From positions 87,546,001 to 87,610,000 of the forward strand of contig CM059432.1 of assembly GCA_030390025.1 (NCBI GenBank): 64,000 bases of DNA, in the 5' to 3' direction. A program made the translations under genes and the position numbers. Source of the stretch: Squalus acanthias (lineage: Eukaryota). A model generated the notes under the pieces. The model did not search any database. It was not told where the DNA came from and saw only the letters and a list, made by a program, of their open reading frames with translations. Positions 1 through 55,100 of this stretch are shown one piece after another. Position 1 is the first letter of the stretch. Each line of letters opens with the position of its first letter.

Positions 1-120
1 CCTCTCCATCCCTCCATCTCAACCTCACTCTATGGCCAGAGGGTCTTAAAACCCCAATGCACAACACTCATCCAACACCTATGGCCCTTTCATCAAACAC
101 ACACACACATTCCACACTTT

Positions 121-228
121 GCATACAGTAAGGGCTATTCACCTATGGGAGGCACATCAGGCAAGACCATGGCTGCATACAGTAAGGGCTATTCACCTAT
201 GGGAGGCACATCAGGCAAGACCATGGCT
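121..228. repeat. Perfect 54-bp tandem duplication in the putative intron of the Myb-partner gene
   Basis: gcatacagtaagggctattcacctatgggaggcacatcaggcaagaccatggct occurs at 121-174 and 175-228. Confidence 0.95.
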
Positions 229-263
229 GTATATTTACTCAGATGCTGTCCTTTTTCTTGCAG

Positions 264-426
264 GCCAAGCTGGCTCATAATAGGAGACAGCAGCAACGGA
301 CAGGTGGAGGGCGGCCTCAGCTGCAACCCCTCAGCGATCTTGAGGAGCGCGTCCACAGGATTGTGGCAAGCCGGGTGATCGGTCCCGTCGCCACTGGAGA
401 CGCCGACCCCGTTCTGGACAGCAATG
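264..426 (+). CDS. Internal exon of the Harbinger Myb/SANT-like partner gene
   Basis: Acceptor ttcttgcag ends at 263 and donor GTAAGG starts at 427. Encodes AKLAHNRRQQQRTGGGRPQLQPLSDLEERV. The HN..(R)TGGG.P motif follows the trihelix/Myb domain in Harbinger partner proteins and recurs in relics at ~5800 and 50551. Confidence 0.8.
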
Positions 427-585
427 GTAAGGTCATCACCTTTTTGTCCTCTGTCCTTCCACTTGTCCCTCACAACACCAGCCTTTGACACTTTCAATCC
501 AACTTGCTAACTCGCTGCACTTATTCCTCCCTTACTGCCACCCTGTCCTCACGCTAAAGCCACTCTTGTACCTCCCTGCTTTCAG

Positions 586-1569
586 ATGGTGATTCACCAG
601 CTGAGGAGACGGGCCCTGAAGCTGCCACTGGGAGTGATGCTGCAGCTGAGGAGGAAGAGGAAGCCAGAGCATCAGTGCCACCCTCTCCCGAGGAAGCCCA
701 TGCCGACACTGGGAACACGCCTTCCCCGGAGGGGAGCAGGGGGGAAGGGGCTGATGAGGGTGAAGCTCCAGGACCCAGTGGGCTGCAGCAACGCCATGGG
801 GGGGGGGGGTAGGGAAGAACGGGGGCCTTTTCCCCAGAGGGAGAGTATGCCAGACACTCCTACTGCAATGGACGCAGAGGAGGAGCGGCTGATCGCAGAA
901 ATGAACACCCAGGCAGTGGGCATGCACACTGAGCTCATGGGTGCAGTGGGAAGGGTGCCCGAATGCATTGAGTCACTGGCAAGGAGTGTGGAGCACTTCG
1001 CTGTAGCACAGGCGGATGCCACACTAACGCTTAGTGCTGCAATTCAGTCACTGGCTGCCGTGATCCCATCTCTGACTGCTCTGATACAGACTCAGATTGA
1101 GGCCACGCGAGCACAGACTGCTGCCAACCTCGATGGTTCGTGCACATGTCCCCGGGGCTGTCACCGTGCCGCAGCAGGCCAGCAATCTGTTCTCCGGCAG
1201 ATTGCTCCGGATGCTGAAGTGCTGCCCCGTGGGAGTGCCAGTGTGTCGGGCGAGCAGGGAGTTGCTGTCCTCTCTCACGATGACAGCATTCCTGCTGCCA
1301 ACACTGTCACTTCTCCACTGCACTTGCCACCGCCTGTAGGACAGACTGCTGCCGCCCATGCAGAGTTGGTGCAGTCTGCAGCCGGGCCCTCCAGGCCCAG
1401 AAGTGGTCGAGGCCGTCCTTCAGGGGCATCTGCAGTGTCAGGGTCTGACGAGCAGCAGCCTTCCACCAGCCTTGCTGCAGCCACTGAGGTCCCATTACGG
1501 AGGAGCAGTAGGGTTAGAAGGGGGGAAGTGCGCAAGGGAAGGAGATCACCCTCGAAGGGCAAAAAGTAG
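586..1569 (+). CDS. Last exon of the Myb-partner gene, with an apparent +1 frameshift at G12 (798-809)
   Basis: Acceptor ttcag ends at 585. The phase-1 splice reads DGDSPAEE...APGPSGLQQRHGGGG* (TAG 810-812). Removing one G joins this to the long open frame REERGPF...KGKK*. AATAAA at 1747. Confidence 0.7.
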   Translation: MVIHQLRRRALKLPLGVMLQLRRKRKPEHQCHPLPRKPMPTLGTRLPRRGAGGKGLMRVKLQDPVGCSNAMGGGGREERGPFPQRESMPDTPTAMDAEEERLIAEMNTQAVGMHTELMGAVGRVPECIESLARSVEHFAVAQADATLTLSAAIQSLAAVIPSLTALIQTQIEATRAQTAANLDGSCTCPRGCHRAAAGQQSVLRQIAPDAEVLPRGSASVSGEQGVAVLSHDDSIPAANTVTSPLHLPPPVGQTAAAHAELVQSAAGPSRPRSGRGRPSGASAVSGSDEQQPSTSLAAATEVPLRRSSRVRRGEVRKGRRSPSKGKK

Positions 1570-1863
1570 GAGGTGTGACAAAACGCTGGTCATTTTTTTA
1601 TTAAAGGTCGAGGTTCGTGGTCCAACTTTTGTTTAGTGTTTTGGACATTATCTCCAGGTTGTGAGAACCAGTTATGTTATTGACTGTTTTTTTGTGTTTA
1701 TTTCTATGAGTTTGTCATGAGGAATTGACACACACAGAGTTTGTAAAATAAATAAGTTTCTGTATTCAAAATATACATGGTTGGTCGTTGGAATTATTGG
1801 TGCCTTGGCCGGCTTAGGGGTTGCGTGCTGGGTTCATTAATGTTGGTAGCAATGGCAGGGGCC

Positions 1864-3024
1864 CTAGAAGCGGCTTGCTATTAGCCGTTGACGGACGGCC
1901 CTTGCAGTTTGACCATTGTGGGCCGCCCTCCTGCCTTGGTGCTGCTGATGATCATCATCCTCGTCCTCTTCCTCCTCTTCCTCCTCCTCCTCTGGTGGTG
2001 CTCCAAGGCCTGGTGGCATTGGCTGGGTCCTGAGGATTGCCATGTTATGCAACATGCAGCACATGACTACGAAGTTCGATACTCGCTCAGGCGAGTACTG
2101 CAGGGCTCCTCCGGAATGGTCCAGACAGCGGAACCGTTGCTTGAGCACGCCGATTGTGCGCTCAATAATGTTCCTGGTTGCTTGATGGCTCTCATTGTAC
2201 CGCAGCTCAGCAGGGGTGTTGGGCGTACGGAGCGGTGTCATCAGCCAGGTGCTCAATGCATACCCCTTGTCCCCGAGAAGCCAACCAACTGGCTGATGCG
2301 GTGCCTCAAAAAGTTCTGCCACAGTAGTCTGGCGCAGGATAAAAGCATCGTGGCAGCTGCCAGGATACTGGGCATTGACAGCGAGTATCAGCTGTCTGTG
2401 GTCACAGACCAACTGGACATTCAAGGAATGGAACCCCTTTCTGTTCCTGAATTCCTCTGCATTCTCACGCGGAGCACGCAAAGCCACATGCGTGCAGTCA
2501 ATGGCGCCCTGCACCATGGGGAAGCCCGCTACCCTCGCAAAGCCCAGAGCGCGGTCACGCTGCTTGTCTGGGGTCATGGGGAAAGAGATGAACTCTCGTC
2601 TCCTTCTGAAGAGGGCATTTGTGACCTGCCGGATGCAGCAATGCACCGCGAACTGGGAGATATTGGCGAGGTCCCCAGCAGCAGCTTGGAATGAGCCAGT
2701 GGCGTAAAAGTTCAAAGCCACTGTGACCTTCACTGCCACCGACAGAGACGTCCTGGACCTCAGTTGAGGCTGCAGATCTGGCTGCAGCAGGTGGCAGAGC
2801 TCAGTGACCACCTCCTTGCTGAATCGCAGCCTTCGCAAACACAGCTCCTCAGACATATGGATGTAGGAGAGCTGTTCACAATATACCCTGGGAGGGTAAG
2901 CTCTCCTGTACATACGCCTGATGGCCCTCCTCCGTCTGGCCATCATTGCCACTCTCTCTCTGCGTCTCTGTATCCTCCGATTCAGCTGGAGCAGGACGAC
3001 GCCCCCAATCAGTGCAGCCCCCAT
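1864..3024 (-). CDS. PIF/Harbinger DDE transposase (HARBI1-like nuclease family), intact, ~386 aa
   Basis: Motifs LRRLRF, ALNFYATG, GAIDCTHV, NRKGFHSLNVQLVCD, GSCHDAFIL, LLGDKGY, RNIIERTIGVLKQRFRCL, CCMLHN and an acidic tail. The first ATG is at 3024; the ORF-track start at 3093 is TTG. Confidence 0.95.
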   Translation of the reverse strand: MGAALIGGVVLLQLNRRIQRRRERVAMMARRRRAIRRMYRRAYPPRVYCEQLSYIHMSEELCLRRLRFSKEVVTELCHLLQPDLQPQLRSRTSLSVAVKVTVALNFYATGSFQAAAGDLANISQFAVHCCIRQVTNALFRRRREFISFPMTPDKQRDRALGFARVAGFPMVQGAIDCTHVALRAPRENAEEFRNRKGFHSLNVQLVCDHRQLILAVNAQYPGSCHDAFILRQTTVAELFEAPHQPVGWLLGDKGYALSTWLMTPLRTPNTPAELRYNESHQATRNIIERTIGVLKQRFRCLDHSGGALQYSPERVSNFVVMCCMLHNMAILRTQPMPPGLGAPPEEEEEEEEEDEDDDHQQHQGRRAAHNGQTARAVRQRLIASRF

Positions 3025-3220
3025 ATTCTCTTTGCAAGCAAAGTAATGAGGGACAGCAACTAAAGTAGCAGCAAAGTTAGGATCAATAGGCAAAACTACC
3101 TCACAAAGCGTTGAGTCAATGTAGAAGTCTCTCTCTCTCTCTCTCCCCGAATCTCTCTCTCTCTCTCAGAACGAGTGGTGCATAAATGTCGACCACAGAA
3201 AAAGACAGGAAGAGGCCCCC

Positions 3221-3365
3221 TTTAAATAGTGCCCCCCCCAGCCCCACAGCGATTGATAGCGTTCCAGTCTTCCGGTCGTTGGAAGCGCCAGGCGGTAAGG
3301 CAGGGGGCGCCACTCAATTTCCGCTCCGGGGCGCCACAAGGGCGTTGCACCATGGAATGACGTCA
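3221..3365 (-). promoter_or_regulatory. Putative transposase promoter module (TATTTAAA plus CRE-like TGACGTCA)
   Basis: TATTTAAA on the minus strand at 3221-3228 and TGACGTCA at 3358-3365. The same pair occurs at 33484/33621 and at 49893/49861. A (CT)n tract lies at 3127-3167. Confidence 0.45.
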
Positions 3366-3541
3366 CAATCTGCGCGCGCAGGTGGTCATAGCGGTAAGTT
3401 TTAGCGCCGCCGCACAATCTCAAGTTAAGTTCTCGAGCGGCGCAAACATCGCTGCGCCCGGGCGTTAGCGGCTTTGCGCCCCATTAGCGCCCTCTTAAGG
3501 CGCTAACGGGAGGCGCAACCAACTGAATTTTTACCCCCTAA

Positions 3542-4185
3542 TGTTCCTCCTCATCTCTCTGCGCACATGTTCTCACATTTCTCGCTGCCGACGCTCCCTC
3601 CTTCATAGATCCTGGAGGGCGAGGTTGACTGCCAGTACAGCCCCCATTAATGTTACCAAGTGTAGAAGTTTGAATCTTTGAAGAATAAATGTAGCTACTT
3701 TTTAGTTGCCAGAAGACTCCTGATACAAAAGAACCTTGAAATTACTGAATGAAACTATTGCAGTGGGTGAAACTAACAAAAAAACACTGAAACTGCACTA
3801 ACCTGACAGCTGCGAGTGATTACTGAATATCCCTTTAAATAACATCCCTGGAGCCGGCTTGCTGGTGCTGCACACTAGCTCTCCCTGTCGGTGTTTACTC
3901 CAGGCGGTGATCTAAGTGGCGAAAATCAATTTTGCAAATTGGGCGGTCAGTGAGCATTGCACACTCACTAATGTCACAATCTACCTGACGTTGACATTCC
4001 TGCCGATACCTCTTACCGATGGTGCTACGGCGGGGGGGGGGGGGGGGGGGGGGGCGGGGGGGCGGGGGGGCGGATTTGGGGTGCGCTGCTGGATTCGCCT
4101 CACCCCGGCGATACTGGTCTAGCGCCCCATTAGCGCCATCTACTGGCACTAACGGGAGGCGCAAAGGGGACGAATTTTTCTCCCC
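3542..4185 (-). mobile_element. Older Harbinger relic (transposase N-terminus plus right end) into which the young element inserted
   Basis: Minus strand from ATG 3647 reads MGAVLAVNLALQDL*RRERRQREM*EHVRREMRRN up to the TAA junction. Terminus GAATTTTTCTCCCC at 4185 with the shared gccccattagcgcc...ctaacgggaggcgcaa block. Confidence 0.8.
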
Positions 4186-4747
4186 TGATCTTCTATGGGC
4201 TTCTGACACTGCAGCAGTGGGGCTCAAAATCAAAGTAGCAACAGGAATTAGGAATCCTGTTCTCTAACGCAGATGCATGGACAATGCCCATGAAATGCAA
4301 ACTGGCCATGTCAAATATAGATGATCAGAGATTTCTAAACTTGTCTGTATTTTTCCCATTTTTGTAATAATAGGCAGAACAAAGTAATATGTGTGGGTAA
4401 GAAACACATATCTGTTGCTTCAGTCATTAAATATCACAAGCTTGGCACTTGGTTGCTGCTGAAACATTTTTCTCAGAAAAGATATGTTTACTTTATTAAT
4501 GCTTTTCCTGAAAAAGGTGTATTTCATAATGTGAATCTATTATCTTGGGTTAGAAATGAAGCCAGATAAAACGGAGTGAAACAACTCAGCTTGGTAAGTA
4601 GGTTTCTTTAATGCCGGCTGAAATCCAAAACAACTGGTGCTTAGAGAGGCAGACTGTGCAAGACAGAAGGATGAAAAATGGGAAGAAAGAAAAACAAAAA
4701 CTCATATTGAAATTGACTATTTGCTTTGAAAGAATGCTTACTAATAT

Positions 4748-7142: not shown

Positions 7143-9370
7143 GGGGGAAAAATTGGACATTGACAGAAATCTGCCGATGTCACCGCGGCCTTGGTTTACG
7201 GCCGCTGAAAATGGCCGCAGCGCTACCGGGCAAAAATTCGCGCTGGGGGTTGGAGATTTGTAGCCCAGCGCTAACTTACCATGTAACGCCCTCCTGGTGG
7301 CGTTAGTGGAGGCATCCGACCCGGAGTTCCCATCCTGAAGTGACGTTGCAGCTTCTTACAGCCTCTGGGAGCGAGGCTGTGAAGTTCGCAATGAATTGTG
7401 GGCAATTAAAAGGGCTATGAATTAAAGGGGCAATGCGTTCAGAACTAATAAAAATTATAATCAAGTGCAAAAATGCATTTTTCAGACCCTACTGCCTTTC
7501 AAAAAAAAAACATTTACATTAAAAAGAAGTCCCAAATAGGGGTCTTCAGCACTTAAAGCTGAATTCCCTTCCGAACCTCAAAACATGGGACAAGTGCTTC
7601 AGCACTAACACAAATGACTCAGCAAGCCAGGGAAGGGACACCCAGGGTCTAGCACTTAGCACTCCAGCTTTGTGCCGGGGATTAACACTGCAAGACAGGT
7701 CCTCTACCCACAGCGGCCAGGAAGCCCTCCAGAAAGAAGGATGTGGGACCACATTACCGAGGCCATCACTGCCAGCAGTATCACCTTCACCACCTGGCTC
7801 CAGTGCCCAAAGAAGCTTCATGACCTGAGGCCACTGGTCAAGGTCAGTGAATGCATCTTCAAAAGCTGTCTCCTACCAACTGCACCACTAGCCTCACACA
7901 CTGCTCAATGCATGACTCCCTCCCTCCCCCAATCACTCACCTACGAACAATCTGCACCAATCACGAGGCACATCTCCCATTCCTAGCCTCACCTCAACCC
8001 CTTGAAGGAGAAGGAGCAGGCCATTCTTGGCAGGGGCATGGCTGAGCCCTTGGCCAGCGGCAGGGCAGAAAGGATACAAAATGCTGGTATCCTCATACGT
8101 TATTCTCCTTCTCGCATGCACCTCTTGCTTTCCTGCCCTCCCCTCACCACACCTCCACCCTTGTGCCTTCCTCATTTCACACACCCAAGAAATGCAGCCT
8201 GCCCAGCCAGTGGTTGACCAAGAAGAGGGAGAGGAGAGTGAAGCAGAAGAAGAAGAAACACCGTCACTCGATTTGACACTCACAGCCACCAGCTCCTCAA
8301 GGTCGACCAGCAAGGCCATTTGCAGTGCCCCCCACTGAAAGTCAGCAGCCTTCCACCAGCCATGCTGCAGTCACTGGGGTAGCACTGTGTGACGTCAGTA
8401 GGATAGGCAAAGGCACACACAAGACAGTCACTAAAGGAATGCATAAGGGTGATGAGTTGATTTCTTGATGTCACATTGGATGGATAGATGTATAAAGTTG
8501 GATTGGAAAGTTTGCTTTGTGGTGGCTTTTATTTCAGCATTGTGGCTAAGACGACGCTGTGATGGTCAATAACAGAGGGAAGGTAAGGTGTGGGACTAAT
8601 GTTGAAAGGGGAATTGGGGTTGTGGTCACTGGTACTGCGGGCGGATCATTCAATCCCGGATATCCCAGCCAGAAAGGGGTTGTCTGGGTTGCACCCTCCT
8701 CTTCTGCTTCCTCCTTTTCGGCTTCTTCCTCTTCTGTGTCTTCCTCTTCCCTCTGCGAGCGGATGCTGTAAATCTGAAATGACAGCATAAAATGCTGGAA
8801 ATACTCAGCTGGTCAGGCAGCATCCTGACCTGAGACGTGAACTCTGTTTCTCTCTCCACAGATGTTGCCTGACCTGCTGAGATTTACAGCATTTTATGAA
8901 TTCTCTGTCTCCTTCCTTTACCATCTGAGGCCTTTCAAGCATCCAGCAGCACTCCCTACACACTTAAAAATCTTTTAACATGTACTGCACCAAGCCACTA
9001 CTTCAATAAAATCAAAAACCCTGTTCAAAAGCTTAAATGTAAACTTACCTGAAAGATGTCTATGTCTCTTTGAGAGTTGCTAACAGCACCTCTGTCAGTC
9101 TGCTTGCACGCTGGGTTTACCTGGCGTGCTTAGGACCCAGTGCTGAACTCAGTGCTATGGTCAAAGTTCGCCCTGGCTGATGCCGACTGATGCCACCAGA
9201 GCGCCATTTTTCTTTTCAGGACGATGCTACTTATCGGCAGCGCTACCGGGACTTTGAAAATGGAGGATGTCGCGCGACCTGCCACCAGCTGGCGGAAGAG
9301 CGGCGGCTGCCACTTTCTTGACTTAACGGTGCGCTAACGGGTGGCGCTAAGGTAGGAAATTTCTTCCCCC
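7143..9370 (+). mobile_element. Degenerate Harbinger with Myb-domain exon and transposase remnants
   Basis: Ends GGGGGAAAAATT / AATTTCTTCCCCC. RQVLYP...W..I...TWLQCPKKLHDLRPLVK|gtcagt at ~7690-7842. Acidic exon EEGEESEAEEEETPSLDL, and an acidic tail on the minus strand at ~8700. Confidence 0.7.
8763..8898. repeat. Short palindromic element derived from a Penelope-like 3' terminus
   Basis: aaaatgctggaaatactcagc.ggtcaggcagcatc and its reverse complement. Matches 26490-26580. Confidence 0.75.
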
Positions 9371-13383: not shown

Positions 13384-14248
13384 GGGCTGGATTTTACCAG
13401 CTCTGAGGAGGCAGGTTTGGAGGCGGGACTGCTGGCAAAATCAAAGAGAATGGGAGCAGGTCCCGAACCCGCTCCCAATCCGCCTCCAAACAATCTTTCC
13501 GGGAGTCGGGTCTCCGATTTGCGCAGGGACCCGACTCCTAGCGGCGGGAAGAGGATTATAGCCACTTAACTGCCGTTAACAGGTAGTTAACAGGCAGTTA
13601 AGAGGCTTTTTCCCACTTTGAGACTTCTGCTGCGGGTTTCCTGACATCGGGGTACCCCGCCAGGGTAAGTGAGGTGTGCTGTGCGTATATTGTAATGTTT
13701 GTGTATAGATGACAGCTGCAGACATGGTGTGAAGGATCCATAGGACACTGGTGAGTATCAGAGGTAAGGAGATGTTGAGAAAGTCATTTTTAATGTGTTT
13801 AGATTTTTTTGTAAGTGACAAGCTTTGAAGTGTTTGTGTGGCCTCACCTCATTGGGAGAAGTGACAGATCGCTTCTGTAACCTCACCTGTAGCTGCCATC
13901 TGTTTTATCCTAAGGAGAGAGTCATTGGAGAGCCTTGGTACAAGGGCTGACCTTTGTACAGTGATTGTCAGTGCTAGACAGCATCTCAATGCTGTCAAAC
14001 ACTGACAGATCATCTGTCAAAAATAAATGGTACATGTCCCTTTAAGAAAACCGGCAGATGAAGCGTCATCAACTGACATCATCTGACACTGGCTTTCCCT
14101 TAATTGGCTGGCAAGCCCGCAGGGTGGGCTTAACAAGGCCAATCAGGGGAAAATAGCATCTGTGCATTGGACATCGCTGGGGGCGGGACTAGAACCCGGA
14201 AGGCAGCACTCCCGCCCCCAACTCGTCTCAGCAGGTAAAATCCAGCCC
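13384..14248. mobile_element. Non-autonomous Harbinger-type element with perfect 15-bp TIRs
   Basis: GGGCTGGATTTTACC (13384) and GGTAAAATCCAGCCC (ends 14248), with TTT on both flanks (3-bp TSD). Confidence 0.88.
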
Positions 14249-15707
14249 TTTGATTCTGCGATTCACCACCATGATGCATGTTTCCAATAAATTGATCCAA
14301 TACGAGCAAAATAAAACTGGATTGTGCAGTGTGGTGACCCATCCTGTTATTCTATAATCTTCCAATTTTACACAATATATATTAAAAAAAAATACAGGCC
14401 CAGATATTCACCTGCTCACATGGTCGCAGGGCCCACATTAGATTGATGCTGGCAGCTCATTATAATGAGTAATGAGCCAGGCGTGCAGTCAGAGCTACCT
14501 GCGCTATTCATTGGCTGCATGCCTGTTTGGGGAGTGGGAAATTGGACTTCACTGATGACACTTAAAAGCAGCCAACGCCCCTTAAAGGAGCGGTGCACAC
14601 TGGCTGCAGAGAGCAGGGAAATGCTGTGAAGGTCTAAAATGGCTGGAAGATGTACAGAGAGGCCTCCAGGTGCTTTTTGCAGGATGGTAGCCATGGTCCA
14701 GGCTGTCACCAGGAAGAGTGAAATCCTATTCACACTACTGCCATAGATGCTCAGGTGGCTGCCATCTTGGCTTTGGAGCCAGTGTTGAGAGGGGCTTCCA
14801 GAGTGTTACATCACTCCGGCACTCTGTTCTCCCACAGAGCTTTAGGAGTGTTGAGGAGCTGTCCCAGGAGAGCGGCCTTTGCTCCATATGAGAGGCATGC
14901 TGTCTTCTCTCAGGATGACGTCACACTGCCCCTCTGTCATCCTCTCCTCCAGTGCCTTTCTCAGTGTCACACAGTCAGCTGGGCCAGACTGCCCCGGCCC
15001 ATGGCGAGATGCTGCAGTTTGCAGCCGGGCCCTCAAGGCCAAAAGCTTGGAGATGTCATTGATGTCACCTACTGCAGCCTGGGACAACCCTGTGGCATAA
15101 AAATTAAGGGCCACATTGACCTTGACAGTCACAGGCCGCTCTCCTGGGACTGCGTCTCAGCACTCCTAAAGCTCTGCGCAACAACAGAGTGCCGGAGTGA
15201 TGTGACGCTAAGGAAGCCCCTCTCAGCAGTGGTTCCAAAGCCAAGGTGGCAGTCACCTGTGCATCTATAGCAGTAGTGTGAACAGGATCTCCCATGTCCT
15301 GGTTCAAGGCTTGAGTTGTGGCTGAAGTGCTCCTTGAAGACCTGCTATGGGTATGGCCTCCTGCATAGTGCCCTTCTCCTGGCTCTTCTCTCAGCTGCTC
15401 TTGTTATTTTCTCTCTTCTTTGCTGAGCCCCCTTGTCCACCAGCCCCAAAGGCAAACCTACCAGACCAACCATGAATTAAAAAAAACTGTTTTGAAGGCA
15501 GCCAAAAACTTGTTAGAAGTCACAATTCAGTTGTAGAGGGCAGAAAATAGGCAAAAAACACCTAGAAGCTAACGAGTAGCCTAAAAGGATGAATCAACAC
15601 CTAAGCTATTTTATAAAAAGGATATAGAGGCACTGGAGAGGGTGCAGAGAAGATTTACAAGGATGATACCAGAAATGCGAGGGTATACATATTAGGAAAG
15701 GATGAAC

Positions 15708-20580: not shown

Positions 20581-21153
20581 CACTGAGCTCTCTCTGGGTC
20601 TCCTTCTCCCCCAGTGTCACTGAGCTCTCTCTGGGTCTCCTGCTCCCCCAGTGTCACTGAGCTCTCTCTGGGTCTCCTGCTCCCCCAGTGTCACTGAGCT
20701 CTCTCTGGGTCTCCTGCTCCCCCAGTGTCACTGAGCTCTCTCTGGGTCTCCTTCTCCCCCAGTGTCACTGAGCTCTCTCCGGGTGTCCTTCTCCCCTGTG
20801 TCACTGAGCTCTCTCTGGGTCTCCTGCTCCCCCAGTGTCACTGAGCTCTCTCTGGGTCTCCTGCTCCCCCCCTGTCACTGAGCTCTCTCTGGGTCTCCTG
20901 CTCCCCCAGTGTCACTGAGCTCTCTCTGGGTCTCCTGCTCCCCCAGTGTCACTGAGCTCTCTCTGGGTCTCCTTCTCACCCAGTGCCACTGAGCTCTCTC
21001 TGGGTCTCCTTCTCCCCCCCTGTCACTGAGCTCTCTCCGGGTGTCCTTCTCCCCCCCTGTCACTGAGCTCTCTCTGGGTCTCCTTCTCCCCCAGTGTCAC
21101 TGAGCTCGCTCTGGGTCTCCTTCCCACCCAGTGTCACTGAGCACTCTCTGGGT
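20581..21153. repeat. 37-bp minisatellite, ~15 copies
   Basis: Unit cactgagctctctctgggtctcct(t/g)ctcccccagtgt. Confidence 0.95.
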
Positions 21154-22639
21154 ATCCTCAGCTTAATGCTGTATCACAGCTCAGGATACTGGAAATGCAT
21201 CAGAATAGTGTCAAAAGTCAAAAATTCCTTGGGGGTGGGGGGATGCCCCCAGATACCACTAGGACATCTATTTCATGCCATTAGAGCTCAATCCCCTCTT
21301 CAAAGGTTTCTAAAACCAGCACTGCAAAAATTGCATTTTGTGCATTGAAAATTTTCCCCGTAATACAACTGACAGAATATTGGGTACAACTGCAGTCGTC
21401 ACAAGTTCATGTCCCACTGCATTCCTATTGTAATTCATTCCTTTTGCCTGTCATACATGAGGCCAGGTTTCAGATTGCATAGAAAAACAATCCTAATTGG
21501 CAAATATGATCTCAAAACACTAATAAAATCCTGAAATCCAGTCAAATACCGATGTCTGGAGCGTGCATCAGCTCCTTTCATTGGTGTCTGAAGTGTCATA
21601 GGACCCCAATTAGCATATTAAAAGTAGCTTCCAGCCTTGAACAGGTGGGCACTCTCCAGCCGCCTATTTCCAGGATGGGTCGAACATAACCATGGTAAGT
21701 GTTGCATCGCGATTTTCGGAATGCATGCGTCCTGTTCCCACCTGGTGGAGGACCTGAAAGTCGACCCCAAGATGTCTTGTGAGGCATGCTTCCCTATAAT
21801 CTTCATCCACCTTTTTTAGCTCAGCCCTCCATTAATAATGTATAGATAGGAATCCCCTTTGGGAGACCCACGATGATGGTCTTGTCAGATTTAAGTCATT
21901 TTTTTCAAATTTAGCTCAGTGAGTATACAGAGGAAGGAAGAAGTCCCCCTCTTTAGCTTCAAAACAAAATATAAATGACAAATCACTTCAGTATTCCTCA
22001 AAAGTTTTGGGACACTCAGGAGGCAGTATAACACTTACTTCCACCTTGATGGGTTGCTGCTGTCATCTATCGTGTTGTGGCAAAAGGGGTGGAACCTTGG
22101 CATGTACAGATCTTTCCCCATTCCTTACCCCCACCTCCCTCTAGATTGCACGATTTTAACATGATTATTTTAGAGAGAATTCTAGGATAAGTAGTTAGGT
22201 GTGATGATGATCATTAATGGGCTATTGTGGTCTCCTGGAGTTTAACTCAATTCAGGGGTTGGAGAGGAGAATTTCTCTGAGCTTTTCTTAAATTAGCTGG
22301 AGAACTTTTCCTATTTTTCTGCCTCTCCCAGGCAATTGCATGGTTAAGAGGTGAGTAAATGCTGTACATGGTTGTACCATATCTGGATGGGTTAGGCTTG
22401 ATGAGCTTAATGGCCTTTTCACAGGCTTTTTTTTCAAATATTGCACTCAATTTGTAATTGGTTTCAATCTTGTATGTAGAAGGCTGTCATCAGTGGGAAT
22501 AGACCTGTATGGGGCCATGTCACAAGTGAGAGTCCCACAGGCATCAATTGGGACCAATGCTGTTCATTATCTTCATTAATCATTTTGATTAGGGATTACA
22601 CAAGTTTGCACAGGGGTTAGGAATTTAGACCAAATCAAT

Positions 22640-31080: not shown

Positions 31081-32800
31081 GGCCAAGATTTACCGGGGTG
31101 TCAGCAGGAGCAATCGGTCGGGTGGGAAAGTGTATTTTTTCCCCAGTGGTCGGGACACCGTTGTCAAACCACCGCCACGTACCTTTCCCTGATGTCGGGT
31201 CTGTCAGCATACTTATCTGACAAGCAGCGGCGGGCGATCCAATTCAGATAAGTATGACCTTGTTTAGAAATCATTAAGAATACATTTGAGCTCACCTTTT
31301 GATTTTACGTGCTCGCCCATGGGGTCCTCGCTGCTCGGGGATCACATCTGTTAAGCTGAGGCGGGAGATGAATGGACATTGAATCAGCTGATTGCTTGAC
31401 AGCTTGAAATGTGCTATAAAAGCTCCCACCTCACAGCTGTTCACTTTCCAAGCTCAGAAGCTGTTGCTTACTGCATTTGGAAGACAGATTGAGCTTTATG
31501 CAGGTTGCAAGTATTTGGAGCAAACTCTGTATCCAGTGCCACCTCTCTCACCATTGACAGATTGTTTCTGTCAACTCAACTTAACCTGCCATCTATTACA
31601 TCAGCATCGGTGCCCTTAAAACTATCTCACCTTGGTCCTCAGAATTCCACCACGATCAGCCCCAACACCAGCAGCACCAGGCACACCACCAGCACCAACA
31701 ACACCAACCTTCTCTGCAATCAACTGATGCTGCACAGGACACAGGGCATCAGCACCTGACCACATTGATGCCCGGGAGGCCAGGGATGGCTTCACCATGG
31801 CCAGATTAACTTCACTTGACACTGTACACCCTGGCTGCCACATGATGCGCCAGGTTGGCACCACCCCACACCAACACCATAAAGCATTCCTACAATGCCC
31901 AAGCCATTCCTTTCACACTCATCACCATTGCGGGGGGTACTGTTGTGTCTCACCATTCATTGCAACTCACTAAGCCACTTCCAAAGGCGCACACAAATCC
32001 GTCCAAGAACGCAAAGTGTTGAAAATAAAGGTTTCAATGTTTGACACCACATTAACAGAAACTTCACATGAACATTGCATAAAACACCCAAGTGCATACC
32101 CTTGTGTGTTGTTAGTTGGTATGATTGCACGAGCATGAGGGTGAGTGTGAGGGGTGGCTAGTGAGATGGGGATGTGATAATGTAGATAGAGAGTGATGGG
32201 TGGAGGTGCAAGGTAAGTTGGCATGTGTAAGAATGTGCAGAAGTAGGGTAGGGAAGGCAGAGTGTTGAGTGTGGCTTTGTACTAACATTTCGTGATCTAC
32301 TGAGATCATTGAAACGTTTGCGGCACTGCACCCAGGTCCTCCTGACCGCATCCCTGCTTGTGCCCTCCTCTGCAATGTGCAACCAGGCTGTGTTGATCTC
32401 CTGGGGAAGTGTCTTCTACCCACCAGAAGGGAAGAGGACCTCCCTGCGTGCTGTGACTCCCTCCATAAGCATATGGAGGGAGTCATGGGAAAGCCTGGGT
32501 GCAGCCCTGCACGTCTGTGCAGTGATTGTCAGTGTTTGCAGCACCTCAATGCTGTAGAACACTGACAGCACAAACGTCAAAATAAATTTGGCCATGATCC
32601 CTTTAAGGAAACTGGCTGATGATGCGTCATCAAATGACATCACCAGACTTGCTTCCTCTAATTGGCCGGGAAATACGCTGGGCGAGCGTAACAAGCTCAA
32701 TCAAGATAAATTCATTTCAGTCAGCAGGATGGAGCCAGCAGTGGGGCTGCAACCCGCCACCGACATCGCCCGCCACGGACCCGCCGAGGTCAGCAAACTC
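31081..32800 (-). mobile_element. Harbinger relic with a Myb-domain exon on the minus strand
   Basis: AAPRLSHDSLHMLMEGVTARREVLFP...WLHIAEE...RRTWVQCRKRFNDL (32290-32510). Left end GGCCAAGATTTACC. Confidence 0.75.
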
Positions 32801-32903: not shown

Positions 32904-33800
32904 GGGGGAGAAATTCGATATCGCCCTGTTTGGGGCGCAATTATCGGCCGGGCGCAAAGTTTAGCGCCTGTCGCTAATTATCGCCTCTGACTGCAAACTT
33001 GGCTTCTATCGTCCCTGGAGGTGATTGCAGCGCTAAATCAGGCGCTACACACCTCTCTTAAGGCACTATCGCCGAGGAGCGAGGCGCTACCTCAGAGCGC
33101 TGGCGAAGCTCCTGTGCTGTCAGTCAGCAATGGAACACAGACACACTAGAGCCAGCCAGTTCTTAAAGGGGAGGGTCGATCTTGCTCTCCATCCACACCC
33201 TGCTCATTGCAGCCTTGAATCTCGACCTGGAGAGACCTGCACATCAAATCTGCTGGAAAGAACAATGGAGAGGCCCAGGGAAAGAGCTCAGAGTGCAGCC
33301 CCCACAGTCTCTTCTAAATCGATGCAAGGAAGGTCAAATCAAAATGAACCTGCAAAGTGCTGCTCAGTATCCAAAACTCCTTCACACAGAGTTGAATCTC
33401 TCCAGAAGTCTCTCTCTCTCTCTCTCTCTCAGAATGCGTGGTGCAAAAATGTCGCCGACAAAAAAAGGCAGGAAGCGGTCGCCTTTAAATAGCGCTCACC
33501 CAGTCCCTTCCCGACTGCAAAACCTTCCGCTCAACCTGTTGTTGCTAGCGGCAGGCGGAAAGGCAGGGGGCGCCACTCAATATCTGGTCCGGGGCGCTAC
33601 TGGGGTGTTGCACGCTCGACTGACGTCACGATCTGCGGGCGCAGGAGATCGTGGCGGTATTGTTTAGCGCCGCCGCAAAATATCTGGTCAATTTCGTGAG
33701 CGGCGCAAACATTGCCGCGACCGGGTGCTAGTTGCTTTGCGCCCCATTAGCGCCCTCTTAGGGCGCAAACAGGAGGCGCAAAGCAACCAAATTTTTCCCC
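32904..33800. mobile_element. Internally deleted derivative related to the young Harbinger at 1-3538
   Basis: 33405-33800 is collinear with 3125-3538 ((CT)n, TATA, TGACGTCA, terminal block). Ends GGGGGAGAAATT / AATTTTTCCCC. Confidence 0.85.
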
Positions 33801-38310: not shown

Positions 38311-38605
38311 AATCTATCTTTTAAATAACTTTAAAAAAATCCTTTTTGTGGAAACATGTCAAAATATTCAAAAACGCAACAGTGGGAAATGAAATGGTGC
38401 TGCATCTGTTTAAAGGGGTTACTGCAACAAAAACTAGAACTGACTGGCTAGTATGCAAAGCTCCTGTATTTGCAGATGCTGCTTTGAATATTCTTGCGCA
38501 AAAAGTACCACAAAGGAGGGTTGCTCTATTTGGGACTTTAGGGCACTCTCTCAACAGTAGAAATATACAGCCTGCTTGGCAGGAATTGGCGGACATCTTA
38601 TATGC

Positions 38606-38895
38606 TGTAGAATCATAGAAGCTTATGGCACAGAAGGAGGCCATTTGGCCCATCGTGTCTGTGCCGACCGCAAAGAGCTATCCAGCCTAATCCCACTTTC
38701 CAGCTTTTGGTCCGTAGCCCTGTAGGTTACTGCACTTCAAGTGCATATCCAAGTACTTTTTAAATGTGATTGTGGTTTCTGCCTCAACCACCCTTTCAGG
38801 CAGTGGGTTCCAGACCCCCACCACCCTCTGGGTGAAAATATTTCTCCTCAACTCCTCTCTAATCCTTCTACCAATTACTTTAAATCTATGCCCTT
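38606..38895 (-). mobile_element. CR1 3' fragment
   Basis: Same 3' UTR and tail as 29915-30142 and 4748-4955. Confidence 0.8.
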
Positions 38896-39293: not shown

Positions 39294-40310
39294 GGCCCTG
39301 ACTTTTCACAATGTTAGTTACACCGTAGTTACGCTGTTATTGCATTGGAAAGTTACAGCGCTCAGCAGCAGAGGGAGTTACAAGCACATTTCCTGGGTAA
39401 GATAATTAGCACATGAACTGGTGTAAGTATTATCATGATGTGTAAAACTAGTGTAAGTAACTGAACCCCCAGGAAACGTGAGTGTAATACTGGTGTAACT
39501 GTTTAAAATCACTCTGCAGACTCCATTCCTCAGCATAACCCTGGGAGTGTTTTCTCTCTGAGTTCTGCTCAAATCTCTCCACTCCATTTATAACTCACAT
39601 CTTTACTCTATATTGGTAACCAAATGGCAATGTAGCTGGTGCCTGTGTTCACTGGGCAAGCAGGCAGAAGAGGTGGAAGAAGAAGATCAGTGAACTTCTC
39701 GGAGGAGGACTTTTATGCCCTTTTAGACAAGGTGAAGGAAAGGAGGCACCGTCTCTTGGGACAGTGCACCTCCAAGCCTAGCAGAGCAGTCAGCCGTGCT
39801 GCCTGGAGGAGGTGACACTGGCACTTAAGGCTAAATCCCTTACTCCTAAGACAGCAGAGCAGTGCAGGAAAAAAATTGATGATCTCACCAGATCTGGCAA
39901 GGTAAGGCACTCACAGTGGTTTTCCTTTCTTCCTTGCTCACCATGGGCAACACCACAGTATTCACCTGTTCAAACTATACTCACACTTCTAATCCTTCAT
40001 TCTGCACTCTGGTTACGGGAATCTTCTAACTTCCTGTCCTGCATTATGGCTACACACCTCCCCCAACACACAAAATTACCTTGCACAATTCCCAAAACAT
40101 CTTCCTCCATTCTACCATCTTCATACCCCCCACATCTCTTAGTTCACCTTTCCCATCACATAGGCTGCAGACTTCTGCACTGCTAGCCTTACCCTCACTT
40201 ACTTATGTCGTTTCAGGAGCAGCTGGCCCACAATGCAAGACAGACCACTGGGCATATCAACACTGTGCCCCCTCACCCCGCATAAGAAGAAGGCTGTAGC
40301 AGTGCTGGAC
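39294..40310 (+). mobile_element. Harbinger relic, left end with a Myb-domain exon
   Basis: NFSEEDFYALLDKVKERRHRLLG...AW...KTAEQCRKKIDDLTRSGK|gtaagg (donor at 39902). Confidence 0.75.
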
Positions 40311-49695: not shown

Positions 49696-50748
49696 GGCCA
49701 GAATTTTCCCTACTGAGTCGGGTCGGGTGCGTGCGGGGCGCGTCGTGGGTCGGTACCGCGATGTATTGATCAGCCCGCTCTTCACAGCAACTTTAGCGTA
49801 ATGGCCCCTATTAAGGCAGACATGCGTGTTTCCCGGCCCTATTAAATGGTGCAGGTCTGATGACGTCATCGATGACTCATTTCCAGCTGGGTTATTTAAA
49901 GCAGCCTTGGCCACATCGTATTTGAAGGTTCATGTAGGAATGTGCAGGGAGGATTGGAGAGGAGTGTATTGTTGCGGAGAAATAGAAAAATAACTGCATA
50001 AAAACAGAGGGCTGCACCCCGCTTTTCTGATGAATCGCTATATATTCTTGTGGAGGGAGTCAGACCACGCAGGGAGATCCTCTTCCCTGCTGATGGGCAG
50101 AAGAGACCTCCTCAAGATACCAAAAGAGCCTGACTCCAAATTTCTGTAGAGGTCAACAGCAGGGATGTCGTAAGGAGGTCCTGGGTGCAGTGCAGGAAGC
50201 GCTTCAATGATCTGATGAGATCAGGAAAGGTGAGTGCAAAGCCACACTCACCTTCATCCTGATGTGCTAGTCAACACATCCTCATCACTCTGCCTCCTCC
50301 TGCACATTACTCCTCACACCAACCTACCTTGCACGTCCACCCATCCCTCTCTCTCTATGTACATACTCACATCCCCATTTGACTAACTACCCCTCACACT
50401 CACCCTCATCCTAATGTAACACCACAGAAAGAGGCCATTTGGAATTGTCACCCCACTCCCTCATAGTCACCCTCTACAGATGTAACCCACACATTCCTTA
50501 CACTCATTCCATCACTCTCACTCAAACTTCTCTTCTTTCCCTCCTTGCAGGAGAAGAGAGCCCACAACAACAAGGAAAAAGAGAGAACCGGAGGTGGCCC
50601 TCCATCCTTCAATACCTTAACTGCAGCAGAGGAGGTGGCCCTGGAGGTCTCAAGAGCTGCAGAGCTGCTGGCGGTGGGAGACGGATAGAGGGGGTCCTCC
50701 CAGCAATCTCATACAGCCACATGGCATACAACAGTCACTCATATGGTG
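49696..50748 (+). mobile_element. Harbinger left-end relic with a nearly intact Myb/SANT exon and the following exon
   Basis: 50008-50229 reads RAAPRFSDESLYILVEGV...RA*LQISVEVNS...RSWVQCRKRFNDLMRSGK|gtgag. From 50551: EKRAHNNKEKERTGGGPP. Confidence 0.88.
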
Positions 50749-52189: not shown

Positions 52190-55100
52190 GGTCTTCATGC
52201 GATCGGGGGTGGGGTGGGGGGGGGGGGTGTCTTGCCCTGATTGAGGGAGGGCGGGGGATTCTTCCTTCAATCGGGGGGAGGGGAAGTCTTGCTCTGATAG
52301 GGGTGGGGGGTCTTGCCCTGATCGAGGGAGGGGGGTCTTCCTGTGAATGGGGGGAGGGGGGTCTTGCCCTGAACGGTGGGGGGGGGGGGGGTCTTGCCGT
52401 GATCGGAGGGAGGGGCTTCTTGTCATGATTGGGGGGTGGGCGGAGTGTCTTGCTGTGATCGGGGGGGGGGGTCTTGCTGTGATCGGTGGGGGTCTTGCTG
52501 TGATCGGAGGGAGGGGCTTCTTGTCATGATTGGGGGGAGGGCGGAGTGTCTTGCTGTGATCGGGGGGGGGGGGGTGGTCCTGCTGTAATCGGGGGGTCTT
52601 GCTGTGATCGGGGGAGTCTTGCTGTGATCGGGGTGGTCTTGCTGTGATCGGGGGTTCTTGCTGTGATCGGGGGGTCTTGCTGTGATCGGGGGGGGGGTCT
52701 TGCTGTGATCGGGGGGTCTTGCTGTGATCGGGGGCGTCTTGCTGTGATCGGGGGCGTCTTGCTGTGATCGGGGGGGTCTGGCTGTGATCGGGGGGTCTTG
52801 CTGTGATCGGGGGGGGGGGTCTTGCTGTGATTGGGGGGGTCTTGCTGTGATCGGGGGGGTCTTGCTGTGATCGGGGGGGTCTTGCTGTGATCGGGGGGGT
52901 CTTGCTGTGATCGGGGGGTCTTGCTGTGATCGGGGGGGTCTTGCTGTGATTGGGGGGGTCTTGCTGTGATCGGGGCGGGGGTCTTGCTGTGATCGGGGCG
53001 GGGGTCTTGCTGTGATCGGGACGGGGGTCTTGCTGTGCTCGGGGGGGGCTTGCTGTGATCGGGGGGAGTCTTGCTGTGATCGGGGGGTCTTGCTGTGATC
53101 GGGGGGGTCTTGCTGTGATCGGGGGGTCTTGCTGTGATCGGGGGGTCTTGCTGTGATTGGGGGGGTCTTGCTGTGATTGGGGTTGGGGTCTTGCTGTGAT
53201 CGGGGGGGGTCTTGCTGTGATCGGGTGGGGTCTTGCTGTGATCGGGGGGGTCTTGCTGTGATCGGGTGGGGTCTTGCTGTGATCGGGGGGGTCTTGCTGT
53301 GATCGGGGGGATCTTGCTGTGATCGGGGGTGGGGGTTCTTGCTGTGATCGGAGAGTCTTGCTTTGATCGGGGGGGGGGGGGTCTTGCTGTGATCGGGGAG
53401 GGGGTGGGATCTTGCTGTGATCAGGGGGTCTTGCTGTGATCGGGAGTTCTTGCTGTGATCGGGGGGTCTTGCTTTGATCGGGGGGGGGGGTCTTGCTGTG
53501 ATCGGGGGGGTCTTGCTGTGATGGGGGGGAGTCTTGCTGTGATCGGGGGGGGTCTTGCTGTGATCGGGTGTATTGCTGTGATCGGGGGGTCTTGCTGTGA
53601 TCGGGGGGTCTTGCTGTGATCGGGGGGGTCTTGCTGTAATTGGGGGGTCTTGCTGTGATCGGGGGGTCTTGCTGTGATTGGGGTTGGGGTCTTGCTGTGA
53701 TCGGGGGGGTCTTGCTGTGATCGGGGGGTCTTGCTGTGATCGGGGGGGTCTTGCTGTGATCGGGGGGTCTTGCTGTGATCGGGGGGGTCTTGCTGTGATC
53801 GGGGGGGTCTTGCTGTAATTGGGGGGTCTTGCTGTGATCGGGGGGTCTTGCTGTGATTGGGGTTGGGGTCTTGCTGTGATCGGGGGGGTCTTGCTGTGAT
53901 CGGGGGGTCTTGCTGTGATCGGGGGCGGGTCTTGCTGTGATCGGGGGGGGTCTTGCTGTGATCGGGGGGTCTTGCTGTGATCGGGGGGGTCTTGCTGTGA
54001 TCGGGGGGGTCTTGCTGTGATCGGGGGGTCTTGCTGTGATCGGGGGGTCTTGCTGTGATCGGGGGGTCTTGCTGTGATCGGGGGGTCTTGCTGTGATTGG
54101 GGTTGGGGTCTTGCTGTGATTGGGGTTGGGGTCTTGCTGTGATCGGGGGGGGTCTTGCTGTGATCGGGGGGTCTTGCTGTGATCGGGGGGGGTAGTCTTG
54201 CTGTGATCGGGGGTGGGGTCTTGCTGTGATCGGGGGGGTCTTGCTGTGATCGGGGGGTCTTGCTGTGATCGGGGGGTGGGGTCTTGCTGTGATCGGGGGG
54301 GTCTTGCTGTGATCGGGGGGTCTTGCTGTGATCGGGGGGTCTTGCTGTGATTGGGGTTGGGGTCTTGCTGTGATCGGGGGGGTCTTGCTGTGATCGGGGG
54401 GGTCTTGCTGTGATCGGGGGGTCTTGCTGTGATCGGGGGGGTCTTGCTGTGATCGGGGGGTCTTGCTGTGATCGGGGGGTCTTGCTGTGATCGGGGGGTC
54501 TTGCTGTGATCGGGGGAGCCTTGCTGTGATCGGGGGGTCTTGCTGTGATCGGGGGGTCTTGCTGTGATCGGGGGGTCTTGCTGTGATCGGGGGGTCTTGC
54601 TGTGATCGGGGGAGCCTTGCTGTGATCGGGGGGTCTTGCTGTGATCGGGGGGTCTTGCTGTGATCGGGGGGTCTTGCTGTGATCGGGTGGTCTTGCTGTG
54701 ATCGGGGGCGTCTTGCTGTGATCGGGGGGGTCTTGCTGTGATCGGGGGTGGGGGTTCTTGCTGTGATCGGAGAGTCTTGCTTTGATCGGGGGGGGGGGGG
54801 TCTTGCTGTGATCGGGGAGGGGGGTGGGATCTTGCTGTGATCGGGGAGGGGGTGGGGTCTTGCTGTGATCGGGGGGGTCTTGCTGTGATCGGGGAGGGGG
54901 TGGGGTCTTGCTGTGATCGGGGGGGTCTTGCTGTGATCGGGGAGGGGGTGGGGTCTTGCTGTGATCGGGGGGGTCTTGCTGTGATCGGGGGGGTCTTGCT
55001 GTGATCGGGGGTGGGGGTTCTTGCTGTGATCGGAGAGTCTTGCTTTGATCGGGGGGGGGGGGTCTTGCTGTGATCGGGGAGGGGGTGGGATCTTGCTGTG

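Follow-up and report, generated by a model that had tools for sequence, protein, structure and literature searches.

The first lines of a 64,000-nucleotide stretch of Squalus acanthias DNA (the window) raise the question of whether a shark genome carries a two-gene Harbinger transposon that can still move. The start of the window is likely to be the right-hand 3.5 kb of one two-gene Harbinger-type (PHIS) cut-and-paste transposon from a shark-or-ray family (Table 1). The copy is an ordinary young member of a known superfamily, and the Harbinger kind itself is not new.

Table 1. Features of the element at the start of the window
Feature	Position	Strand	Basis or remark
Left end and Myb/SANT exon 1	upstream of position 1, beyond the window
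Part of intron 1, Myb-like gene	1..263	+	54-bp tandem duplication at 120-233
Exon 2 of Myb-like gene (AKLAHNRRQQQRTGGG...), helix right behind the Myb/SANT domain	264..426	+	homologue alignment
Predicted intron 2, 159 nt, GT..AG, phase 1	427..585	+	splice signals; gap in homologue alignment
Exon 3 of Myb-like gene, frameshifted; codes for an acidic linker, a helical region and a basic tail	586..1569	+	homologues, frames
Frameshift: 12-G run (798-809) and premature TAG (810-812)	798..812	+	homologue frames, contigs
AT-rich spacer between both stop codons; poly(A)-type hexamers at +1600, +1747, -1597, -1697	1570..1863	.	putative function
Harbinger-type DDE transposase, 386 aa, intronless	1864..3024	-	Pfam, triad, homologues
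Transposase upstream region, candidate promoter; (CT)n tract and TATA-like TTTAAA at 3221	3025..3240	-	common to the element at 33 kb
CpG-rich subterminal region, 8x (A/T)GCGCC in both orientations	3240..3523	.	motif count
Right terminal inverted repeat, inward GGGGTAAAAATTCA	3524..3537	-	similar ends in window; sister-copy loose ends
Probable 3-bp target duplication CTA	3538..3540	+	sister-copy divergence point, flank pattern

The transposase and its convergent partner

The transposase ORF runs unbroken on the minus strand from an ATG at 3024 to a TAA at 1864 (386 codons, 1161 bases), and its GAIDC, LGDKG and IERT motifs place the catalytic residues at D176, D252 and E288, with DD35E spacing; the uninterrupted transposase with three catalytic motifs described in an earlier note on this DNA was thus borne out. 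The product matches Pfam DDE_Tnp_4 (PF13359, E 1.5e-39), so that the HARBI1-like transposase with intact triad that marks Harbinger/PHIS elements in the broad sense is present, and in an AlphaFold2 model (mean pLDDT 85.5) D176 is predicted to lie within a strand and E288 within a long helix. All of the first 68 relatives listed came from sharks and rays, the closest being proteins of Pristiophorus japonicus labelled ‘putative nuclease HARBI1’ (P0002, 65% identity, the best value; P0003, 60%). Among the 110 relatives spanning all three catalytic sites, only 54 retain D, D and E, as the window protein does. Twelve of the 18 differences listed within the transposase were synonymous, as expected where a family spread under selection for function. 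A PDB sequence search gave no match at E ≤ 0.1, and Foldseek gave none at E ≤ 0.001; the weak Foldseek rows obtained (retroviral integrases and DDE transposases only, best 4.4e-3) contribute nothing.

The convergent partner (exons 264-426 and 586-1569, plus strand) is, judging by the homology of its predicted exons, a Myb/SANT-type gene. Exon 2 aligns with P0123 at 140-192 and P0008 at 83-116, in which PF13873 occupies 67-143 and 13-85, respectively, and the shark proteins to which exons 2 and 3 are similar carry PF13873 directly ahead of the matched part. The second gene of broad-sense Harbinger/PHIS elements was therefore recognized through homology, the PF13873 part itself lying upstream of the window, and no Pfam match was obtained on any partner piece within the window. 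Exon 3 had nine relatives at E ≤ 0.001 (HMMER, best 42%), and sharks were the source of all seven looked up; word-index searches for partner relatives were empty for part of exon 3 (8000 candidates scored) and for exon 2 (60 candidates). The sequence searches brought up no near-identical protein on record. The DDE transposase with its triad and the convergent Myb/SANT-type partner agree with the vertebrate two-gene Harbinger that the earlier note had proposed.

The element was further compared with contigs from runs X1 and X15 (organism A) and from X11 and X8 (organisms B and C); this comparison drew on 32 pieces, on 40 of 211 variants and on 15 joints out of 43. The splice signals of the partner are canonical (...CTTGCAG before 264, donor GTAAGG at 427, acceptor ...TTTCAG through 585), and its splicing is predicted from them; the 426-to-586 joint was absent among the 15 of 43 joints listed. 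X15, for which an RNA origin is a guess, has contigs that run through both introns without that joint being listed, and so behaves like DNA; it speaks neither for transcription nor against it. In intron 1, the X11 and X15 contigs extend 130 and 100 letters past position 1. That both break off at 149, once 30 letters of the repeat have been read, points to a 54-bp tandem duplication common to the family.

The break in the Myb-like gene as assembled

The claim of a convergent spliced partner stood as to orientation and splice signals, but the assembled frame is broken at 798-812, which had been missed. The spliced frame stops at the TAG past the 12-G run, and the remaining protein sits in another frame: the shark homologues P0123, P0124, P0126 and P0127 match frame +3 to about 800 and frame +1 beyond. 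As assembled, the frameshift removes about 250 C-terminal residues of the Myb-like protein; since a protein ending at the codon near 810 would retain the Myb domain, its loss of function is presumed. An intron skipping the TAG (GT 809-810 to AG 836-837) was rejected because, at under 30 nt, it would be too short. Contigs of organisms B and C spanning 798 have 5 G and are in frame there, with seven letters absent at 798 in one contig each of X11 (depth 45.7/45.7) and X8 (40.5/42.5).

It is quite unlikely that the copy is intact, autonomous and still able to move, the 12 G being a homopolymer assembly error and the true run being in frame. With so many G in a row, an error of one base could mask an in-frame partner gene, this run is the sole break seen in either gene (no other stop interrupts the 1161 and about 1150 coding bases), and the complete catalytic triad and the low divergence of the copy favor such a reading. 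However, since the spanning family contigs show 5 G, an in-frame copy would need a real expansion plus an error. Moreover, private changes have accumulated, two of them at conserved transposase columns (C49, where R is commonest, in 49 of the 67 rows with a residue, and M321, where V is commonest, in 74 of 101; 120 relatives), and among the rows listed there was neither the spliced joint nor a near-identical long piece.

An improbable alternative is that the frameshift is shared, the copy belonging to a subfamily whose Myb-like gene is dead but whose transposase is open and which was amplified in trans in this organism, with the G run inherited from its parent. Transposase-only variants multiply in sea kraits, according to excerpts of PMC8437027, and for the organism-A runs X1 and X15 neither the 7-letter gap nor any other length difference was listed at 798 (among 40 of 211 variants) despite cover. 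The X1 and X15 pieces are short, though, none among those listed spans 798, and a 7-base gap may have been clipped.

Right end, copy number and age

The element most likely ends at 3537, to judge from the sequences compared: the sister copies, to which the right end GGGGTAAAAATT is common, diverge from the window past this position, and their loose ends begin there. Similar ends occur at 4184, 9369 and 33800, and left ends at 7143 and 32905; a related 896-bp element (32905-33800, the 33-kb element) has both ends present. The TAA reported to follow the terminus is indeed found at 3539-3541, but the favored register gives CTA as the flank, and the target duplication is probably CTA rather than the less likely TAA, since the sister copies part past 3537 and the flank pattern at other elements fits only that register. 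Right flanks in this register are CTA in the window and AAT, CAT and AAA in the loose-end rows. Among five two-ended related elements in the window, an exact 3-bp duplication was found in two (TTT at 13384-14248; CTT at 7143-9369, in one of four registers tried) and was absent in three.

The motif (A/T)GCGCC, which was chosen from these same ends so that its count is not blind, occurs eight times in 3240-3537 (mononucleotide-shuffle mean 0.9, maximum 4, 500 shuffles), seven times at one end of the 33-kb element and eight at the other, twice in the transposase ORF and not at all in exon 3. The Myb-like protein may bind at these repeats. CpG observed/expected was 1.17 at the end seen vs. 0.39 over 1-52000, and the regions around 12-13 kb, 17 kb, 32.5-34 kb and 42.5 kb likewise contain 500-bp bins with values of 0.85-1.11. 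Because such bins lie elsewhere in the window, including at the 33-kb element that is only 75-80% alike, CpG richness was rejected as a mark of age; the ‘undecayed CpG-rich ends’ hold for one end, the other being beyond the window, but do not mark the copy as recent.

The family is very high-copy and of low divergence. Summed depth in X1 (which is not equal to copy number) was 1.1e5-1.8e6 over 1-3600 vs. 7-10.7 over the unique flank 4201-4500, to which one X1 contig is identical but for 1 difference in 248 nt. Although X11 comprises only 8.7 million letters, it covers the element, and several distinct flanks lie behind 3537. Past about 4200, X11, X15 and X8 were without cover, from which nothing follows for insertion orthology. 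Several derivatives with two ends and no fewer than six additional remnants of Myb exon 1 lie within 52 kb, and seven organisms contain at least half of the element's sampled words. A domesticated single-copy host gene pair of the HARBI1/NAIF1 type, which the earlier note had named as one finding that would overturn its proposal, is hardly credible in view of this very high copy number, even though the transposase frame is open and databases label its relatives ‘putative nuclease HARBI1’. Domesticated HARBI1-type genes are single-copy and without terminal repeats, whereas here depth exceeds that of the flank by four to five orders, many flanks occur past the end, the terminal repeat is kept and the partner is broken. 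In a quick tree, loosely used (45 of 121 proteins, the first 45 of 79 covering the core), the window protein fell outside every well-supported cross-species group and was placed among copies from sawshark, with an SH-aLRT of 93 that falls short of the 95 mark.

The copy diverges from the family contigs by 1.1-2.0% (23/2029 differences in the listed element pieces for X11, 21/1476 for X15 and 44/2193 for X8), and some of this is subfamily difference rather than post-insertion drift. At 14 of 39 listed sites, 5 of the 14 being CpG-type, the window's letter is in the minority in each run that covers the site, and at 1083 and 1584 it is near single-copy depth in X1 (20.3 and 12.5); the copy bears a few private and CpG-type changes. 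At the mutation rate of the epaulette shark, given in part of PMC10587355 as 7e-10 per site per generation, 3-14 listed differences would correspond to approximately 1-6 million generations. The copy is therefore young by divergence, as had been claimed, but with such a slow rate it need not be recent in years.

Mobility and relation to known Harbinger families

Harbinger transposition requires the transposase as well as the Myb-like protein, as stated in the accessible text of PMC9179366. Given the frameshift that the assembly shows in the Myb-like gene, the copy is probably not self-sufficient, and its possible mobility as an autonomous element is unsupported; the two intact ORFs by which Han et al. 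(2015) recognize a potentially active family are lacking in this copy as assembled, owing to the frameshift at 798-812. Most likely it is a non-autonomous, slowly decaying remnant of a past burst, movable only with a Myb-like protein from another copy. Its fresh look would be due to the youth of that burst, measured in sequence change, and to the slow mutation of sharks. By analogy with Harbinger3_DR and Pong/PIF, the spliced Myb/SANT protein would bind motifs repeated in the subterminal region (in this family probably (A/T)GCGCC) and would recruit the DD35E transposase, which would cut at the GGGG...AATT ends; insertion would take place into a 3-bp site within a loose A-N-N-Y / R-N-N-T flank. 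The frameshift would correspond to a slipped G run in the Myb-like gene.

The zebrafish element Harbinger3_DR (Sinzelle et al. 2008, via excerpts of PMC3016246 and PMC9179366) is likewise a two-gene vertebrate Harbinger with both genes required and a 3-bp site within a palindromic target. Likened by description, its target AAACAC-CWG-GTCTTT differs from the right flanks CTA, AAT, CAT and AAA found here and, unlike the shark family, it has been reconstructed and assayed, being active in vertebrate cells (PMC3016246, in part). Harbinger-Snek of sea kraits, as described in parts of PMC8437027, is also a high-copy, low-divergence Harbinger of a marine vertebrate, possibly still moving, whose variants (full, single-ORF, and short and non-autonomous) resemble the shark family by description; it is for Harbinger-Snek that horizontal transfer was demonstrated, along with intact copies and with RNA covering both genes. 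The PIF/Harbinger and NuwaI groups of PHIS (PMC4482050, in excerpt) share two ORFs (DDE; Myb/SANT), a length of about 4 kb or more and a short terminal repeat opening with GGG. They are defined by TWA and CWG duplications, and the flanks of the window family fit neither: TAA, a TWA, appears only in the disfavored register as regards the narrow PIF/Harbinger group (Han et al. 2015), and no CWG flank was found for NuwaI, while the terminal repeat, in opening with GGG, is in keeping with the latter. No shark Harbinger family was found in a literature search with Repbase, Dfam and subscription journals outside its scope, where the family may be catalogued, and the word ‘Harbinger’ has no occurrence in PMC11979771.

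The significance of the finding is small as it stands, two-gene Harbingers being known from many vertebrates and one having been rebuilt and shown to transpose. As for the suggested reconstruction as a gene-transfer tool, the family is a fair candidate but this copy is not, and the kind would not be new, Harbinger3_DR having already been rebuilt (PMC3016246, as excerpted). Its spread of about 1% and its mostly synonymous changes make the family well suited to a transposition assay built on a consensus, and also to testing of the (A/T)GCGCC repeats as Myb sites. In the portion of PMC9179366 available, Harbinger was not found in the elephant shark and checks of other cartilaginous fish were called for, a call that a very abundant, low-divergence family in cartilaginous fish answers. 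It is unlikely that the family is still mobile in elasmobranchs, with near-same sequence in at least seven organisms through horizontal transfer or repeated bursts, intact two-gene copies in the genome that work without reconstruction and a 3-bp target looser than those of the TWA and CWG groups. If true, a vertebrate Harbinger would be active by nature in the very lineage for which one survey found none (elephant shark; PMC9179366, same portion), and intact mobile copies or interspecies transfer would bear on the persistence of DNA transposons in slowly mutating shark genomes.

Transposase and Myb-like partner gene

Position 1 of the window falls inside the element, whose two convergent genes and neighbouring features are listed in the table. 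The transposase is open, as the earlier note had claimed, and all three catalytic motifs were recovered: its ORF matched Pfam DDE_Tnp_4 (E 1.5e-39), with D176 (GAIDC), D252 (LGDKG) and E288 (IERT) in DD35E spacing, and the AlphaFold2 model (mean pLDDT 85.5) assigns the first D to a strand and the E to a long helix. Among 8000 candidates 307 relatives were found, the first 68 listed being all from sharks or rays (best identity among them, 65%), which points to a cartilaginous fish as the host. The complete triad is noteworthy, since D, D and E are all kept in only 54 of the 110 relatives covering the three sites. Well-supported shark/ray "HARBI1-like" groups were also observed (P0005/P0006, P0012/P0014, P0030/P0031, P0007/15/16/18/19/23, P0036/41/45), several of them spanning distant genera with short branches and the catalytic E absent; these may be Harbinger transposases that cartilaginous fish have domesticated.

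Neither the exon 2 nor the exon 3 piece of the partner matched Pfam, and two word-index searches retrieved no relatives of it. A HMMER search yielded nine, and the seven looked up were shark proteins. The Myb/SANT domain PF13873 is present in two of these relatives, P0123 and P0127, and the exon 2 alignment begins where this domain ends in P0123 and P0008; therefore, exon 1, with the domain, would lie upstream of the window, beyond whose position 1 contigs from two runs extend by 100-130 letters. Splicing of this convergent gene is predicted from its splice signals; no 426-to-586 joint was present among the 15 of 43 joints listed, and contigs from X15, a run of organism A, cover both introns. 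The gene models P0124, P0128 and P0008 fuse Harbinger Myb-like exons with RING/B-box, an Ig-domain protein or transposase, and represent either annotation chimeras or exon capture.

Features of the element and its surroundings
Feature	Position	Strand	Remarks
Partner exon 2	264-426	plus	canonical splice signals
Partner exon 3	586-1569	plus	canonical splice signals
Transposase ORF	ATG 3024 to TAA 1864	minus	intronless, 386 codons
Flank repeat	3541-4184		X1 depth 1e4-1e5
Older 2.2-kb Harbinger derivative	7143-9369		CTT duplication, fifth C counted as target
865-bp element	13384-14248		perfect 15-bp inverted ends, TTT duplication
Decayed Myb/SANT exon-1 remnant	32296-32502	minus
896-bp internal-deletion derivative of related family	32905-33800		flanks CTG / ATG, one base different
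Decayed Myb/SANT exon-1 remnants	38454-38609, 39696-39904, 50014-50235

Frameshift in the partner gene as assembled

With the exons joined in phase, translation of exon 3 runs through ...GLQQRHGGGG to a stop (TAG 810-812) directly preceded by 12 G (798-809). Four shark homologues (P0123, P0124, P0126, P0127) matched frame +3 until about 800 and frame +1 thereafter, and therefore have a single reading frame across the change. The partner is thus frameshifted as assembled at 798-812, which the earlier note had overlooked.

In Harbinger elements, according to PMC9179366, the Myb-like protein contacts the transposon ends as well as the transposase, with which it is imported into the nucleus, and neither gene is dispensable; by analogy, the Myb-like protein studied here would bind the element ends and its transposase and go into the nucleus jointly with it. 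Because both genes are needed and the partner is frameshifted as assembled, this copy is most likely unable to move by itself, though a partner supplied by another copy could still make use of its end and its transposase. The 12-G run may be private to this copy, common to a subfamily, or wrong by one letter through assembly error. An intact copy masked by homopolymer error is quite unlikely: among the four runs compared, the single spanning contig each of X11 (organism B) and X8 (organism C) is without 7 letters at 798 and carries 5 G, in frame, against 12 G in the window. The lack of a row for this gap in X1 or X15 (organism A) counts against the frameshift reading and would agree with a partner dead throughout a subfamily amplified in trans, but the short pieces listed for these runs never cross the site, and such a subfamily-wide loss is unlikely.

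Copy number, divergence and age

The family is present in high copy number. Summed X1 depth, which is not itself a copy number, was 1.1e5-1.8e6 over 1-3600 vs. 7-10.7 over 4201-4500, where one X1 contig differs from the window at a single position over 248 nt. The depth gap of four to five orders, the coverage of the element even in X11, which comprises just 8.7 million letters, and the different flanks behind its end exclude a single-copy gene, named in the earlier note as part of a refuting case, and make a domesticated gene extremely improbable. At least half of 391 sampled words were present in 14 of 21 listed runs (organisms A-G plus one further run), which may reflect close kinship or horizontal transfer; that the family is still mobile or was transferred between species is doubtful.

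Divergence was low: the listed element pieces differed from the window at 23 of 2029 positions in X11 (8/8 pieces), 21 of 1476 in X15 (7/8) and 44 of 2193 in X8 (7/8), flank pieces being dropped. Of 40 variant rows listed among 211, 39 were used (flank row 4427 was dropped), and at 14 of these the window's letter is the rarer one in each run with cover, including five CpG-type changes and six rows where its letter represents <1% of X1 depth; at 1083 and 1584 its letter stands at about single-copy X1 depth. Twelve of the 18 listed transposase rows were synonymous (9/12 family polymorphisms vs. 3/6 window minority letters), and C49 and M321 stand where relatives most often have R and V. With the epaulette shark rate of 7e-10 per site per generation given in PMC10587355, 3-14 changes in 3537 bp would correspond roughly to 1.2-5.7 million generations; across the rate interval of that source the span widens to 0.6-28 million. 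The estimate uses another species' rate and changes counted among listed variant rows, CpG sites mutating faster. The low divergence favors the recent origin proposed earlier in terms of sequence, though not necessarily of years, and the frameshift as assembled speaks against autonomous mobility. The right end is CpG-rich as claimed (o/e 1.17 vs. 0.39 overall), although values of 0.85-1.11 occur at further elements of the window.

Termini, neighbouring elements and affiliation

Read inward, the right end is GGGGTAAAAATTCA. In X11 and X8, loose ends set in after 3537 (four contigs each) and after 3538 (one contig), so that the terminus most likely lies at 3537, with flanks AAT-GTCT, AAA-GAGT and, counting the shared C, CAT-GATT. 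The flank pattern A-N-N-Y-[3 bp]-R-N-N-T, tested on window elements, fits both sides of the two with an exact 3-bp duplication (13384-14248 and 7143-9369); three further two-ended elements have no such duplication. For the studied element only the end at 3537 fits R-N-N-T (CTA-ATGT, not TAA-TGTT; chance of a match, 0.13), whereas one X1 loose-end row of the 33-kb-like subfamily fits the 5-C register. With the end at 3537, the target duplication is probably CTA, and the TAA previously proposed is less likely. The last 300 bp hold eight copies of (A/T)GCGCC and the two ends of the related 896-bp element seven and eight (shuffle means <1), the motif having been picked from the same ends; by analogy, these are candidate Myb sites. 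In this 896-bp element a left end that carries a terminal repeat and the opening codons of a Myb-like gene (MERPRERA, ATG 33265) is fused to a right end with 75-80% similarity to 3011-3536, and it would show by analogy what the left end beyond the window looks like.

The flank repeat contains a long G run (4029-4073) and terminates in another Harbinger-like right end (4184-4185) with 75-79% similarity to that of the studied element; the studied element probably inserted into an older relative. In the 2.2-kb derivative, Myb exon 1 (7663-7842) survives in decayed form and exon 3 as a remnant (8277-8453). The exon-1 remnants at 32.3 and 50.0 kb are arms of a 262-bp inverted pair (I1), and a rearranged relic at 14697-15314 has 185-bp inverted arms of Myb-like exon-3 sequence on either side of a piece of transposase (15043-15132). 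A 37-bp minisatellite occupies 20581-21158, and a G-rich unit of 19-20 bp, GGGGGGGTCTTGCTGTGATC, is repeated in tandem about 560 times over >11 kb (52571-64000), with longer-period structure too.

Broadly defined, the Harbinger/PHIS superfamily includes this element; with its end at 3537 it shows neither the TWA duplication of the narrow PIF/Harbinger group nor the CWG of NuwaI, and as assembled this copy lacks the two intact ORFs used as a criterion in the same source (PMC4482050). Its mode of working would be that of Harbinger3_DR, rebuilt earlier and active in vertebrate cells (PMC3016246), and its family is high-copy like Harbinger-Snek of sea kraits (PMC8437027). The paper listings searched, which do not extend to Repbase or Dfam, contained no account of a Harbinger family from sharks; PMC9179366 calls for checking further cartilaginous fish. 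The two-gene Harbinger is a known kind of transposon, to which this shark family is added as a further member.
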